IMG/VR virus record: IMGVR_UViG_3300033066_001396
Coordinates: 32,001-96,000 of that record
Direction: 5' to 3' (one strand)
DNA length: 64,000 bases
Source of the DNA: a virus
Lineage: Duplodnaviria; Caudoviricetes
In this document: piece by piece, positions 30,742 through 46,202 of the stretch
Layout of the letters: the number at the start of each line of letters is the position of its first letter
Numbering within the stretch: the first letter of the stretch is position 1
Program-made: the position numbers and the translations under genes
The notes under the pieces: generated by a model
The model's database searches: none
Told to the model about the DNA's origin: nothing
The model's input: the letters and a program-made list of their open reading frames with translations, nothing else

Positions 30742-32343
30742 ATGTTTGGAATTGATTTTTATCCAACTCCTCCAGATGTCATTGATATGATGATAGACAT
30801 ACCAATACGGGGAAAAACGATTTTGGAGCCCTCGGCCGGGCGTGGAGATATAGTGGACTATCTGTTAGCCCAGGGAGCTAAAAACGTGCTGGCCGCAGAA
30901 ATAGACCCATCACTAAGGACTATTCTAAAAACCAAAGCCGAACTTGTGGCCATAGATTTTTTGGATCTTAAAGCGGAGCGCATTTCGCATATCGATGCTA
31001 TTATCATGAATCCGCCATTTAGTCGGGCCGCTGAACATATTTTGCACGCCTGGGCAATAGCACCGCCAGGCACACAAATACGGGCATTGCTCAACATGGC
31101 AACAATTAAAAACACATATAGCCAGGCCCGAGTCGATTTAACTACAATTATAGAAGAAAACGGATCGGTTGTATCATTGGGCAATGTGTTCAATAAAGCA
31201 GACCGGCCCACAGAAGTAGAGGTAGGCCTGGTAAGACTTAAAAAACCTGGAGAATCAGCAACTCAGGAATTTGAGGGCTTTTTTATGGATGAGGATATAG
31301 AGGCCCAAGGCGACGGCCTAATGCCTTATAACGTTGTCCGGGACATTGTAAATCGATACGTAGAGGCCGTGAAAATATTTGATCTGCAACTGGAACAGGG
31401 GGTGAGACTCAACAGTATACTAAAAGGTTTTTATGGTCATGAGTTAGGATTGCAGGTAACCCAGGAAGGCCGGGCAAAATCTAAAAATGAGTTTAAAAAA
31501 GATTTACAGCGTGACGCCTGGAAGTATATTTTCGATAAACTGGATTTAAGCAAATATACTACCAGGGGAGTAATGAATGATATTAATAAATTCATTGAAC
31601 AACAGACCGAAGTTCCTTTCACCATGCGAAATATATATTGGATGCTGTCAATAGTCAGAGGCACCACCGGATCCAGAATGGATAAGGCACTGTTAGAGGT
31701 ATTCGAAAAACTTATATCCATGTCCTATGATGGAGAAAACAAATACTATCCCGATGGCCGTTGGAAAACCAATAGCCACTACCTGGTAAATGAAACATTT
31801 ATTATTCCACGCATGGCCGAGACCGATCGATGGCATAAGGGCAATAAAATACAGCAAAATTATGGGGGGTATTGGGATTACATTGAAGATCTTGTAAAGG
31901 CCCTTTGTTTTATCACCGGTGACAAATACGAATCCTTTGGCACACTATCAAATACCATAAGATACGAGTATAAGATTAGAACTGCCGATACTGTTAAATA
32001 TGCCACGGGACGGGAATTCTATGCCGGAGCGTTGGCTATTGAAAAAGAGCTATATGAAAAGGGAATAGCTTTTAAAACCGAGCAGTTTTTACCGGAGTAT
32101 GGGCAATGGTTTACCTGGGCTTACTTTGAAGTAAAAGCATTTAAAAAGGGTACCATGCATTTTAGATTCAAGGATAAAGAGATATGGGCAATGTTTAATA
32201 AACATATAGCCAGAATCAAAGGATACCCGTTATTCGAACACAGGCCAAAAGGGACCAGAGAACAGCAACGCACGAACAAAGAGCAGCAGATATACAAGGA
32301 TCAAACTATTTTATTCAACATTAAACAAGAAGCAGCTTTATGA
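30742..32343 (+). CDS. N6-adenine DNA methyltransferase with DUF4942-like C-terminus
   Basis: DFYPTP, ILEPSAGRG, IIMNPPF; WKTNSHY, YFEVKAFKKGTMHFRFKD. Confidence 0.9.
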   Translation: MFGIDFYPTPPDVIDMMIDIPIRGKTILEPSAGRGDIVDYLLAQGAKNVLAAEIDPSLRTILKTKAELVAIDFLDLKAERISHIDAIIMNPPFSRAAEHILHAWAIAPPGTQIRALLNMATIKNTYSQARVDLTTIIEENGSVVSLGNVFNKADRPTEVEVGLVRLKKPGESATQEFEGFFMDEDIEAQGDGLMPYNVVRDIVNRYVEAVKIFDLQLEQGVRLNSILKGFYGHELGLQVTQEGRAKSKNEFKKDLQRDAWKYIFDKLDLSKYTTRGVMNDINKFIEQQTEVPFTMRNIYWMLSIVRGTTGSRMDKALLEVFEKLISMSYDGENKYYPDGRWKTNSHYLVNETFIIPRMAETDRWHKGNKIQQNYGGYWDYIEDLVKALCFITGDKYESFGTLSNTIRYEYKIRTADTVKYATGREFYAGALAIEKELYEKGIAFKTEQFLPEYGQWFTWAYFEVKAFKKGTMHFRFKDKEIWAMFNKHIARIKGYPLFEHRPKGTREQQRTNKEQQIYKDQTILFNIKQEAAL

Positions 32344-40425: not shown

Positions 40426-40895
40426 CATTATTAACACCAGAAAAAGCCAAGTTGCTTCTTGGTGATCCAAACAAGGCAGAGGCAAAAAATTGCGCTCTGT
40501 GGGCAGCACCAACAAACAAGCGCATAGACAATATCCCCGTTAAAATATATATGAATAAGGCAATGATTCCATATTGGAATACTGCTTATCTGGAAATATA
40601 TGATAAGGGCGTTGGATCTTTGATAAAAACTTGGGATGGGTGTTTTAATATGAGACTTATTTACGGAACCAGACAATGGAGCTTGCATGCGTGGGGATTA
40701 GCGTTTGATATAAACGCACAAACCAATAAACAAGGAACAAAAGGAGATATGCCTAAAATAATTGTCGAAATTTTCAAAGAAAATGGTTTTGATTATGGCG
40801 GAGATTTTAAAGGAGCCAGAATTGATCCTATGCACTGGCAGTTAAAAGAAGAATTTTTAACATATTACATAAATAAAACCCGAACATCAAAATGA
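40422..40895 (+). CDS. M15-family peptidoglycan peptidase (endolysin-like)
   Basis: GCFNMR...SLHAWGLAFDIN...GFDYGGDF...DPMHWQ. Confidence 0.92.
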   Translation: MTLLTPEKAKLLLGDPNKAEAKNCALWAAPTNKRIDNIPVKIYMNKAMIPYWNTAYLEIYDKGVGSLIKTWDGCFNMRLIYGTRQWSLHAWGLAFDINAQTNKQGTKGDMPKIIVEIFKENGFDYGGDFKGARIDPMHWQLKEEFLTYYINKTRTSK

Positions 40896-41680
40896 TGATA
40901 AGACAAAGCAAGAATGTTTTTGGTTTTAATAAAGATGGAACTTTTTTTGGGGGGTGGCCTTCTATAAAAGAATGCGCAAGGAGCCTTAAAAGAGAGCCAT
41001 CTACTGTGCGAGAGGCGATTAACAAAAGAAATTTTTGTAACGGATTGGTGCTTCAGTTTATACCAGAGTTCATGCCTATTGAAAAGCGAATAAGGTGCAG
41101 ATCTGGTGTTCCTCCCAAAAAAAACGCCAAGGTTGTTCCAGACGAAAATACAGTTGTAGTGCCAGATACAAATGGATATTATTATGTCACCAGAGATGGC
41201 AGGATAATTAATATGTATGGTAGAGAATTACAGCAAAAAACTACTCTTTGGTGTGAATACTTAACCGTGAATCTTCAAATAAATAAAAGAAAAACGCACA
41301 GGAGTGTTCATAGAATAGTCGCACAGGCCTTTTTGTCAAATCCAGAAAACAAATCACAAGTCAATCATGACGATGGAAATAAAAAAAATAATAATATAAG
41401 CAACTTGGGGTGGATGACACCAAAAGAAAACATGAAACATGCTATTGATAAGGGTTTGTATAAACGATACAATAATCAAACATACAAGGGTAAATTTGGC
41501 AAGGATCACAATAGGTCATTGGCCGTTATCTGTAAAAACACAGGTAATGTGTACGGAAGCATTTCTGAGGCGTCAAGAGAATTAAAAATTAGTATTTCAA
41601 CAATTCATTATTCGATATCTAAAAAAGTTCCATTAAAAAATGGACTGGAGTTTTCTTATCACCAAAAGTTGATCAAATGA
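40892..41680 (+). CDS. HNH homing endonuclease with NUMOD-type DNA-binding modules
   Basis: VHRIVAQAFLSNPENKSQVNHDDGNKKNNNISNLGW; SIKECAR and YGSISEASREL modules. Confidence 0.92.
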   Translation: MMIRQSKNVFGFNKDGTFFGGWPSIKECARSLKREPSTVREAINKRNFCNGLVLQFIPEFMPIEKRIRCRSGVPPKKNAKVVPDENTVVVPDTNGYYYVTRDGRIINMYGRELQQKTTLWCEYLTVNLQINKRKTHRSVHRIVAQAFLSNPENKSQVNHDDGNKKNNNISNLGWMTPKENMKHAIDKGLYKRYNNQTYKGKFGKDHNRSLAVICKNTGNVYGSISEASRELKISISTIHYSISKKVPLKNGLEFSYHQKLIK

Positions 41681-43392: not shown

Positions 43393-43461
43393 TGCTTGCC
43401 TATAACGTATGGTGCTTGCCGAAGGGCGGATTTAGAATTACAAATGTTCAATTACTTACTT

Positions 43462-45297
43462 ATGTCAAATAGAAATACTAATGTTCAGGGCTTGCACGTC
43501 AGCCCGCCTTTTGGCAAACACGTGTTAGGCGAAGATGCTTTTACGGTACTTTCCTTATTCGATGGAATGTCGTGTGGCCAAATGGCTTTAAAACGTGCAG
43601 GGTTTAATATTACCAAGTATTATGCTTGTGAAATTGATAAATATGCTATACAAGTAACTCAAAAAAACTTTCCTAATACGATTCAATTAGGAGATGTTAC
43701 AAAAGTTTCGGCAAAGGATTTATCAAAAGTAAATTTGCTTATTGGTGGTAGCCCGTGCCAGGGATTTAGTTTTGCTGGTAAGCAATTAAATTTTGAAGAC
43801 CCAAGAAGCAAACTGTTTTTTGAGTATGTGAGATTGCTAAATGAAATTAGAGAAATAAATCCTAATGTACTTTTCTTACTTGAAAACGTGGTAATGAAAA
43901 AAGAGTATCAAGATATAATTTCGGAACATTTAGGCGTACAACCTATTTTGATTAATAGTTCACTTGTATCGGCTCAAAATCGCAAACGATTATACTGGAC
44001 TAATATTGGTAAAATTTCACAACCAAAAGACAAAGGTATTACTTGGGGTGATGTAAGAGAACACAATATAGAATGGGGTGCAATGTATTATACCGATAAA
44101 GCAATGGATTGGATAGGGAAACACGGAACAAGAAAAGGAAAGCCTTTGAAAATTCACGCTGATAATGAAAAAATGCAAATGCTTGAAGCAAGTCACCACA
44201 AAAAATATAGTTCACAAAGGTTTTTTGGAATAATAGACCAACCTGCCCAAATAACTGGGCGTAGGCTTAATGAATTTGGCAAAAGAGAAGATTATAACAA
44301 AAATATCAAAACTACTCAATGTTTAGAAGTAAGAGGTGGCGATAAAGTAAATTGCCTTACAACTGTTCAAAAGGATAATGTAATTAGTGTATTACCAATA
44401 GGAAGATACCCTGATGTGTTTAAAGAATTGGAAGAGGGTAAGCATTATAGATACATTACTCCAATTGAATGTGAAAGATTGCAAACTGTACCTGATAATG
44501 AAATTATTTGTATATTTGCATTATGTTTAGACCGAGCAAAGAATTATGTAAATGCGGTAGAGCAAAATCCCAAGTTGCTAAAACTTGCTTTGAGTGCCGA
44601 AAAAACAGAGTTGAACGAGTTTGTAAAACTTGTAATTCAAAATACATTACAAAGCAATCAACAAACAAAGTATATTGCTCAAGTAAATGTAGATATGCAG
44701 ATACAAATGCAAACAAATCAATGCACAGCAAACAATCAGAAAGACAGCAATATAATTGCAAACAATGCGGCAAATATTGCGATGTGCAAAAATCAAAATA
44801 TAGGGGCGGATTTTGTTCATCCAAATGTTTTTATAAATATAACAGAGGGGAGAATAACCCACTTTGGAATGGAGGAATTACACCAGAAAGGCAAACATTC
44901 TACAAATCAATTGAATGGAAACAAGCCGTTGCTCTTGTCTGGGAACGAGATAATGGAACTTGTCAAAGATGTAAATGCCGGAATAACAAGGGAAAAAGAT
45001 ATGAATTTCACATTCACCACATTATCAGTTTTAAACACAAACAGTTTAGAACTGATGTTAGCAACCTACTACTTGTTTGCAAAAAGTGCCATAATTGGAT
45101 TCACTCAAAACACAACAAGTCAAAAGAGTATATCGGTTCAATTCAAAATAAATGATGGATACACAAGCATTGTAAGTAATTCTCAAAGGTACAGAATGCT
45201 TGGTAATGGTTGGACTGTTGATGTCATAAGTCATATTTTTAACCATATCAAAAAAGAAGTTTCAAGTTACGAGGGTGCTTCTTGCATTTTCGCCTAA
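43462..45297 (+). CDS. dcm: C5-cytosine DNA methyltransferase carrying a 220-codon in-frame insertion
   Basis: VLSLFDGMSCG (I), GGSPCQ (IV), LLENV (VI), QNRKRLYW (VIII), CERLQTVPD (IX), RYRMLGNGW (X); start probably ATG 43462 in the hairpin loop. Confidence 0.93.
   Translation: MSNRNTNVQGLHVSPPFGKHVLGEDAFTVLSLFDGMSCGQMALKRAGFNITKYYACEIDKYAIQVTQKNFPNTIQLGDVTKVSAKDLSKVNLLIGGSPCQGFSFAGKQLNFEDPRSKLFFEYVRLLNEIREINPNVLFLLENVVMKKEYQDIISEHLGVQPILINSSLVSAQNRKRLYWTNIGKISQPKDKGITWGDVREHNIEWGAMYYTDKAMDWIGKHGTRKGKPLKIHADNEKMQMLEASHHKKYSSQRFFGIIDQPAQITGRRLNEFGKREDYNKNIKTTQCLEVRGGDKVNCLTTVQKDNVISVLPIGRYPDVFKELEEGKHYRYITPIECERLQTVPDNEIICIFALCLDRAKNYVNAVEQNPKLLKLALSAEKTELNEFVKLVIQNTLQSNQQTKYIAQVNVDMQIQMQTNQCTANNQKDSNIIANNAANIAMCKNQNIGADFVHPNVFINITEGRITHFGMEELHQKGKHSTNQLNGNKPLLLSGNEIMELVKDVNAGITREKDMNFTFTTLSVLNTNSLELMLATYYLFAKSAIIGFTQNTTSQKSISVQFKINDGYTSIVSNSQRYRMLGNGWTVDVISHIFNHIKKEVSSYEGASCIFA
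44511..44518 (+). promoter_or_regulatory. internal Bacteroidota -7 element for the nested HNH
   Basis: TATATTTG 4 nt before ATG 44523. Confidence 0.6.
44523..45155 (+). CDS. zinc-finger HNH endonuclease nested in an alternative frame of the methyltransferase
   Basis: CKTC/YCSSKC repeats, GENNPLWNGG, VWERDNGTCQRC, HIHHIISF...DVSNLLLVCKKCHNWIH. Confidence 0.92.
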   Translation: MFRPSKELCKCGRAKSQVAKTCFECRKNRVERVCKTCNSKYITKQSTNKVYCSSKCRYADTNANKSMHSKQSERQQYNCKQCGKYCDVQKSKYRGGFCSSKCFYKYNRGENNPLWNGGITPERQTFYKSIEWKQAVALVWERDNGTCQRCKCRNNKGKRYEFHIHHIISFKHKQFRTDVSNLLLVCKKCHNWIHSKHNKSKEYIGSIQNK

Positions 45298-45451
45298 CGG
45301 TAGGGCTTTGCGATGTGTGGGCATCGAAGCACAAAAGCTGAATAACCCACAAAAGCATCATAGAAGTACGATGCTGAATATTAGTACTTCTGCCACATAT
45401 AGCAAAACCCCTGTTATATGCTGTGCTTTCTTAGGGGTGTAAAATTTAGAT

Positions 45452-46103: not shown

Positions 46104-46202
46104 AGTGCTGCACAGCATAGCATATAACGGTAGGGATTTACGCTCGTTATTTTTAGCGGGATTAGAAGCAAAAACTTTAATAAACAACTAAATATAAATA
46201 AA

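Follow-up and report, generated by a model that had tools for sequence, protein, structure and literature searches.

How a selfish nuclease gene can occupy the middle of another protein-coding gene without silencing it is the question raised by a C5 DNA methyltransferase (MTase) gene (43396..45297, plus strand) of an uncultivated virus. The gene lies in the 64,000-nt stretch of DNA analyzed here (the window; positions 32,001 to 96,000 of IMG/VR record IMGVR_UViG_3300033066_001396, Caudoviricetes), which is part of a 124.6-kb viral record. Between its motifs IX and X, it carries a 660-nt insert that contains, in another reading frame, a complete gene for an HNH endonuclease. It was long assumed that a homing endonuclease can spare its host gene only by residing in an intron, in an intein, or between genes. 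For the present locus, the explanation favored here with considerable, if not full, confidence is that an HNH homing endonuclease gene lives splice-free inside the methyltransferase gene, with the resulting read-through loop being tolerated and the HNH protein being expressed separately.

A 660-nt insert with two open reading frames

The whole open reading frame (ORF) of the methyltransferase encodes 633 aa (PF00145, E = 1.6e-37). Its start is uncertain, 43396 being the TTG of the longest ORF and motif I beginning at residue 55. The part 5′ of the insert (43396..44499, plus strand) comprises motifs I to IX, with PF00145 extending over residues 49-368; the part 3′ of it (45160..45297, plus strand) contains motif X (...QRYRMLGNGWTVDV...), with residues conserved in homologues. 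Motifs I (FDGMSCG), IV (SPCQ), VI (ENV), VIII (QNRKR), IX (ECERLQ), and X (GNGW) were all intact. Across 95 homologues, invaded and uninvaded, the motif X residues G603 and N604 were invariant and Q597, R598, and Y599 at least 90% conserved; irrespective of whether an insert preceded it, motif X was invariant. The AlphaFold2 (AF2) model of the 633-aa protein showed block-mean values of the predicted local distance difference test (pLDDT) of ~70-97 for the MTase core, which matched the catalytic domains of DNMT3A/B (E ~1e-15). By its PF00145 match and its motif set, the product of 43396..45297 is a C5 cytosine DNA methyltransferase.

Insert-free homologues of ~351 aa, which are at most 87% identical, read ...ECERLQTVPDN|YT...LGNGWTVDV. 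In the window, the insert (44500-45159, plus strand; 660 nt, corresponding to 220 codons with two-frame coding; residues 369-588 of the host-frame product) sits exactly between PDN and YT, i.e., between motifs IX and X, and is absent from close homologues. Across its length, no stop codon was present in the MTase frame (220 codons), compared with 26 in the third frame. The remaining frame, to which the MTase frame is shifted by +1, is occupied by the HNH ORF (44523..45155, plus strand; 210 aa), which comprises three Cys4 zinc ribbons and an HNH core (PF01844, E = 1.3e-8; phrog_144/119/1271). It begins with a conserved ATG at 44523 (the longest form would begin with TTG at 44508), and its stop codon TGA (45153-45155) falls within the right-hand of the two TGAT sequences flanking the insert, leaving only ~27 nt of the insert outside the ORF. 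The alignment of the HNH proteins contained 32 invariant columns, including all zinc-ligand cysteines and the catalytic His/Asn/His; within the HNH core, H165/H166, N181, and H190/H194 were invariant. A profile of the family matched the HNH domains of 6me0 and 5h0m in the PDB, and the AF2 model had a pLDDT of 87.9, although its similarity to HNH structures was only weak. With PF01844 and the conserved His, Asn, and His of the ββα-metal core, the product of 44523..45155 is an HNH endonuclease.

An annotation made earlier from the sequence alone (the first-pass annotation) had already described a 660-bp insert between motifs IX and X, a zinc-finger HNH of 210 aa in another frame with its TGA in the right TGAT, a methyltransferase frame without stop over 220 codons, and about 26 nt outside the HNH ORF. 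All of this was borne out, its parse of the insert (44497-45156) being equivalent to the one used here, and the comparison with insert-free homologues that it had called for yielded a clean insertion relative to PDN|YT.

Selection on the host frame and on the hidden endonuclease

Relatives of the insert were sought among viral and metagenome contigs through the HNH frame, so that the search was blind to the state of the host frame. It returned 42 loci, which together with the window's own copy represent 34 distinct HNH sequences (HNH identity 44-82%). In all 34, neither the HNH frame nor the MTase frame contained a stop codon, whereas the third frame contained between 10 and 32. Methyltransferase motifs were found on the insert flanks wherever the contigs of the relatives extended that far. 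Taken singly, the window sequence is only suggestive: synonymous resampling of the HNH gene with the codon usage of the window predicted 4.9 host-frame stops (P(0) = 0.002), but with the HNH gene's own codon usage P(0) was 0.16, so that selection is only moderately supported. For the set of 34, 2.8 host-frame stops per sequence were expected after within-sequence synonymous permutation (geometric-mean P(0) = 0.012) and 5.1 with exon codon usage (geometric-mean P(0) = 0.0024).

The avoidance of host-frame stops was also evident from codon contexts in the HNH frame. NTA codons (Leu/Ile/Val) preceded a pyrimidine in 181 cases and a purine in none (Fisher p = 4e-53), NTG codons preceded a base other than A in 75 cases and A in none (p = 2e-9), and an internal Met was never followed by an A-initial codon (0/27), despite the fact that A is the commonest first base. 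When the host-frame peptide was used as a query instead, 46 protein clusters were recovered, all of them methyltransferases reading through the insert.

Eight HNH proteins whose ORFs gene callers had picked up served as a control set; seven could be placed on contigs (P0183, from Thalassospira, could not). Five of the seven likewise interrupt a methyltransferase gene, and none of these has a host-frame stop within the insert; they come from Elizabethkingia anophelis, Psychrobacter celer, a contig binned as Nitrosotalea, and two metagenome contigs. This brings the loci with both frames open to 39 (34 distinct sequences and five from other assemblies). The other two are the only copies with host-frame stops. 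At L064:2355-3136, only motif I of the methyltransferase is left, joined to the element; the HNH is intact, and the former host frame contains two stops (this element adjoins an unrelated N6_N4 MTase, which is called in two pieces). At L069:2501-3118, methyltransferase flanks are lacking, the HNH is again intact, and one stop is present in the former host frame. Because stops are confined to these two copies, the open frame tracks the presence of the methyltransferase and not the HNH sequence per se. Stop-codon avoidance across related inserts, another check proposed with the first-pass annotation, thus holds at 39 loci and fails only where the methyltransferase has been lost. The open MTase frame is selected and not due to chance, and it is the comparative evidence that is decisive.

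At two of the five loci with a methyltransferase (L067:1504-3166 and L068:1480-3037), the methyltransferase was called in two pieces 5′ of the insert, with a separate gene whose frame differs, although the frame across the insert is open there as well. Such calls imply that the 5′ part of the methyltransferase contains a frameshift or an assembly error.

These data bear on three of the ways in which the locus might otherwise be explained. One is that the open frame is a compositional accident next to a dead methyltransferase, to which the P(0) of 0.16 for the single sequence would lend some credit, or that ribosomes hop over the insert from GAT to GAT, as the TGAT on both flanks might suggest and as had been offered in the first-pass annotation alongside a looped-out peptide. 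An accident is excluded by the statistics on the relatives, by a motif X that does not vary, and by the two natural controls. Ribosomal bypass was rejected: a hop needs no open frame, let alone one that stays free of stops for 220 codons, and the residues at the junctions vary from relative to relative (PDNEII.., GVVENN.., PFWKID..), so that putative take-off and landing residues are not conserved. The distance of 660 nt is, moreover, more than 10 times the 50-nt gap of T4 gene 60. Explanations of this kind can hardly be credited. The part of the earlier proposal that stands is the dual-coding mobile element with a looped-out peptide, which the 39 loci, the codon contexts, the controls, and an empty allele (see below) support.

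The insert could also be a self-splicing (group I-like) intron carrying the HNH ORF, in which case the open host frame would be incidental. HNH genes are common in group I introns of phages (e.g., I-HmuI), and the insertion site is highly conserved. However, comparison of the window with Rfam gave no match at E ≤ 10, and in 12 relatives no intron exceeded the gathering score, the sole match being an unrelated tRNA; the ~27 nt outside the ORF likewise agree with the earlier remark that a separate ribozyme core is absent. An intron also gives no reason for 220 stop-free codons in 39 diverged loci, for the avoidance of stop contexts, or for the decay of the host frame once the methyltransferase is lost (L064, L069), which makes it a very improbable explanation.

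The two overlapping frames differ in the way they are conserved. Mean pairwise identity was 0.53 in the HNH frame but only 0.35 in the host frame, compared with 0.34 in the non-coding third frame, and the 32 invariant columns of the HNH frame contrast with 2 in the host frame. Changes synonymous for HNH showed no excess of conservative host-frame replacements (mean BLOSUM62 score -0.906 vs -0.903 expected). Those features of the host frame that look conserved are forced by the overlap: Leu-Cys is imposed by the HNH ATG and ..GFTQN.. by the HNH residues CHNWIH. As judged from these alignments, the loop peptide is under no amino-acid constraint. The frame identities and the invariant motif X indicate that selection maintains the HNH protein and the ability to translate as far as motif X, but not the sequence of the loop.

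The third of these explanations, an intein in the host frame with an out-of-frame endonuclease, the methyltransferase being restored by protein splicing, would equally account for the open host frame. Inteins of this kind have been reported (bioRxiv 10.1101/2025.01.02.630785; 10.64898/2026.09.14.751524), and in these, as in the present element, an endonuclease ORF overlaps an in-frame insertion, and stops have to be kept out of the host frame. Canonical intein or LAGLIDADG domains (PF14890, PF13403, PF14528) also occur in other members of the same methyltransferase family (P0038, P0039, and P0083; in P0038 and P0039 alongside a hidden-HNH insert). In the reported inteins with out-of-frame endonucleases, however, the host frame encodes the splicing Hint domain, whereas here no intein feature was found. 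None of the 34 host-frame peptides had a Hint/intein match in Pfam (E ≤ 1), and their profile had no match in the PDB at E ≤ 1. A conserved N-terminal Cys/Ser is missing, the single near-invariant Cys being the one forced by the HNH ATG; the terminal His-Asn is absent, and the residue following the insert is Tyr, or Pro in L003 (...YVI|PYTEG), or Lys in alternative parses. Only two host-frame columns are invariant, with identity equal to that of the third frame, and the AF2 model of the insert is mostly helical rather than an all-β Hint fold. The lack of intein ends noted in the first-pass annotation is thus borne out by junction residues and by both profile searches, and there is very little to be said for protein splicing.

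Several observations nevertheless weigh against splice-free read-through of an unconstrained loop. Many of the sequences share descent, so the per-sequence probabilities are not independent. The third positions of HNH vary less than those of the single-coding MTase region at equal amino-acid identity (0.46 vs 0.63), which could reflect either an extra constraint or simply a younger, faster-evolving element. In the AF2 model, the pairing of the insert ends as strands (367-376 with 579-586), a pLDDT below 50 for residues 422-473, and the block means of the MTase core given above speak for the read-through loop. Parts of the host-frame insert, namely, the helices 378-423 and 548-569, were modeled with a pLDDT of 70-87, however, so that the insert may fold and possibly function, although evolutionary constraint in support of this was not found.

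These same points, the helices of moderate confidence and the less variable HNH third positions, would favor a domestication of the host-frame peptide as a functional MTase domain, and the tight linkage of nuclease and methylase would fit a role of HNH as a restriction-like partner of the methylase. Against this stand the lack of constraint on the host frame at the amino-acid level, the absence of the insert from the closest MTases, and its sporadic presence in methyltransferases of 409-1012 aa with unrelated variable regions. Because of this sporadic presence, a matched specificity of nuclease and methylase is unlikely. Domestication in either form is regarded as improbable.

Mobility and expression of the insert

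Returning to a homing endonuclease gene that is read through in the host frame, the insert has diverged less than the genes that host it, and its distribution is disjunct. HNH sequences were 81-82% identical between loci whose MTase 5′ parts share only 44-49%, and the nearest MTases (87-93% identical) lack the insert. A near-isogenic empty allele was found at locus L059, which upstream of the site is about 99% (98.8%) identical to the window at the nucleotide level over ~600 nt and reads ...CCAGATAAT|TATACGG... at the site itself. Directly 3′ of the insert, 15 nt (45160..45174, plus strand) are diverged, reading TACACAAGCATTGTA in the window versus TATACGGATTGTGTT in L059; this is probably a co-conversion tract. 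The empty allele and the conservation of the insert above that of its host genes indicate homing, for which the patchy distribution and the probable co-conversion tract are indirect evidence.

Whether the HNH gene has expression signals of its own was judged from their position. The HNH start is a conserved ATG, replaced in four loci by a nearby ATG or GTG. Upstream of it in the window, starting at -12, lies TATATTTG (44511..44518, plus strand), a box resembling a -10/-7-type promoter element, the position of which is conserved in relatives. A TAnnnT hexamer was present exactly at -12 from the HNH start in 19 of the 34 loci but in no more than six at any other offset (the peak at -1, which is the conserved start codon itself, was excluded). 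The window and its nearest relatives have the form TAT(A/C)TTTG; other loci have TATAAT, TATAGT, or TATACT, often after TGn (extended -10, TGnTATAAT), and further lineages have GGAGG or GGAG in the -12 place. The window itself lends a promoter no support: TAnnTTTG was not enriched over its whole length (74 found vs 74.7 expected), and no -33 element was evident. The sigma-70 and terminator scans of the window likewise yielded no more than expected by chance. The box named in the first-pass annotation is thus backed by its conserved position across relatives but not by the window alone, and a promoter in front of the window's HNH is tentative. From its position, the -12 spacing would fit transcription starting at the A of the HNH ATG, resulting in a leaderless mRNA, and initiation elsewhere at an internal Shine-Dalgarno sequence, which suggests independent, often leaderless, expression of HNH.

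The life of the element may then be pictured as follows. The 660-nt element would have been copied into the conserved coding site ...QTVPDN|YT... between motifs IX and X. As the length of the insert is a multiple of three and selection keeps the methyltransferase-continuing frame free of stops, ribosomes would read straight through, yielding a methyltransferase with an extra, unconstrained loop of ~220 residues; emerging at the hinge that joins the target-recognition domain to motif X, this loop would leave the enzyme usable. Translation of HNH would be separate and begin at a start codon of its own in the shifted frame, in the window and many relatives from a leaderless mRNA directed by the -10/-7-type box 12 nt before the start, and in other lineages via a GGAG-type ribosome-binding site in the position of the box. 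The presumed targets of the protein are the empty sites of uninvaded alleles, into which repair of the cut would copy the element. Four of these steps are inferred: that ribosomes read through, that the methylase stays active, where transcription starts, and that the empty site is cleaved.

L059 is empty only at the site between motifs IX and X. Its methyltransferase, which is 93% identical to that of the window, contains another in-frame insert of ~260 codons just before motif IV (GGSPCQ), and this insert hides, in another frame, a 238-aa homing endonuclease of the GIY-YIG type (phrog_314, phrog_5123), which was recognized by PHROGs but missed by Pfam. Hidden GIY-YIG inserts were found in three quite different methyltransferases (L059:283-999, L060:232-942, and L061:2501-3202), in each case with 0 stops in the host frame versus 24-31 in the remaining frame. 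With the inteins mentioned above, in part next to hidden-HNH inserts, this methyltransferase gene family is a hot spot for several classes of selfish elements.

The two named bacterial genomes deserve mention in their own right. In E. anophelis (L063:1386-3311, NWML01000007.1, assembly GCA_032914705.1) and P. celer (L065:1104-3236, JBQQOT010000005.1, assembly GCA_052264845.1), the methyltransferase with the hidden HNH lies in a prophage-like region. In the searched collection, HNH is the only gene on record at both loci, while at least ~1 kb of upstream methyltransferase is unrecorded; in E. anophelis, the HNH record is named "hypothetical protein," and no gene is recorded for the ~1 kb of methyltransferase preceding it.

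Relation to known elements and wider occurrence

Elements that share single traits with the present one are well known. Homing endonuclease genes that stand free and split their host gene (e.g., Aeh1 nrdA/mobE), as well as HNH enzymes encoded in introns (e.g., I-HmuI), represent, like the present gene, selfish nuclease genes at conserved coding sites with co-conversion of the flank. There, however, the host gene is spared because it yields two polypeptides or because its RNA is spliced, whereas the present arrangement implies one polypeptide made by read-through. M.EcoHK31I, a C5 MTase with a second polypeptide from an alternative frame, resembles the present locus in its alternative-frame coding within a methyltransferase gene; its second product, however, is a subunit of the methyltransferase and does not involve an insertion, whereas here it is a mobile nuclease.

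Much closer is an element published in 2025, which reduces the novelty implied by the first-pass annotation. The ShiLan domain of a mycobacteriophage methylase and the insertion in Pacc40 gp60 bring no stop into the host frame and conceal an HNH in a different frame (Arsenault, Gosselin & Gogarten 2025, Genes 16:178, PMC11855218; Gosselin et al. 2023, PMC9957025). No intron or intein was detectable there, and a looped-out peptide and leaderless translation were proposed, based on a handful of mycobacteriophages and, in the accessible parts of the report, without statistics (PMC11855218). The likeness extends to the size of the insertion (~200 codons), its location in a phage DNA methylase whose frame it leaves free of stops, a complete ORF for a zinc-finger HNH that takes up nearly all of the insert in a second frame, the lack of an intron or intein signature, and an insert that is less diverged than its hosts, patchily distributed, and predicted to loop out.

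The differences are equally clear. No Mycobacterium-phage record was among 104 tblastn matches at E ≤ 1e-3, a comparison in which the presence of ShiLan in the collection was unconfirmed and the proteins were not directly aligned. Unlike the ShiLan hosts, those of the present element are uncultivated AT-rich phages and prophage-like regions of Elizabethkingia and Psychrobacter. Among 50,697 deposited phage genomes, no close relatives were found (best tblastn match 30% identical). The HNH start is ATG here and GTG in ShiLan, and the site is here a defined one, between motifs IX and X of a C5 MTase. The sections of the report that were consulted mention nothing comparable to the 39 loci, the codon-context test, the natural controls, and the positionally conserved promoter and Shine-Dalgarno signals. 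Since similarity to Mycobacterium-phage records at the BLAST level is lacking and the hosts differ, the present element is taken as a new family of the published ShiLan type.

This family is much larger than the ShiLan set and supplies the comparative proof that was lacking for the fourth way proposed there, read-through in another frame. What is added is quantitative proof of selection, natural controls, the defined IX-X site, positionally conserved expression signals, sequenced and named bacterial genomes carrying the element, and testable hypotheses on how the hidden gene is expressed. For annotation, the consequence is that gene callers give either the methyltransferase or the HNH, never both.

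A broader reading is that splice-free dual coding is a general lifestyle, with a broad host range, of homing endonucleases in coding genes, equipped with a portable signal at -12 that is retuned for each host; we consider the case for it evenly balanced. It is based on the occurrence of the HNH lineage at the same family of MTase sites in Bacteroidota-like AT-rich phages, Elizabethkingia, Psychrobacter, and the Nitrosotalea-binned contig, and on the hidden GIY-YIG at a different site in the 93%-identical sister gene. The host-retuned signals would be TAnnTTTG, the extended -10 TGnTATAAT (leaderless), and the GGAGG ribosome-binding site.

Other features near the methyltransferase were recorded. 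An 18-nt direct repeat, TAACGGTAGGG(C/A)TTT(G/A)CG, occurs at 45295-45312, after the methyltransferase stop, and 830 nt downstream at 46125-46142, bracketing two small ORFs; its 16-nt repeat pattern is not above chance in the window. As this repeat was all that was found, the earlier suggestion that the insert is nested within a cassette is not supported. At a distance of 1.7 kb upstream of the methyltransferase, there is also a free-standing gene resembling HNH_3/NUMOD1 homing endonucleases (40892-41680, plus strand; 262 aa); with the hidden HNH, this makes more than one selfish nuclease gene in the region. Upstream of the invaded methyltransferase of another contig (L002:153-2022), a helicase-like gene is present as three consecutive ORFs: an N-terminal part with an intein-like start, an HNH_3-like ORF, and a part ending in ...NILVHNC. 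The order resembles that of an intein interrupted by the gene of an endonuclease (a "fractured gene" or split-intein arrangement).

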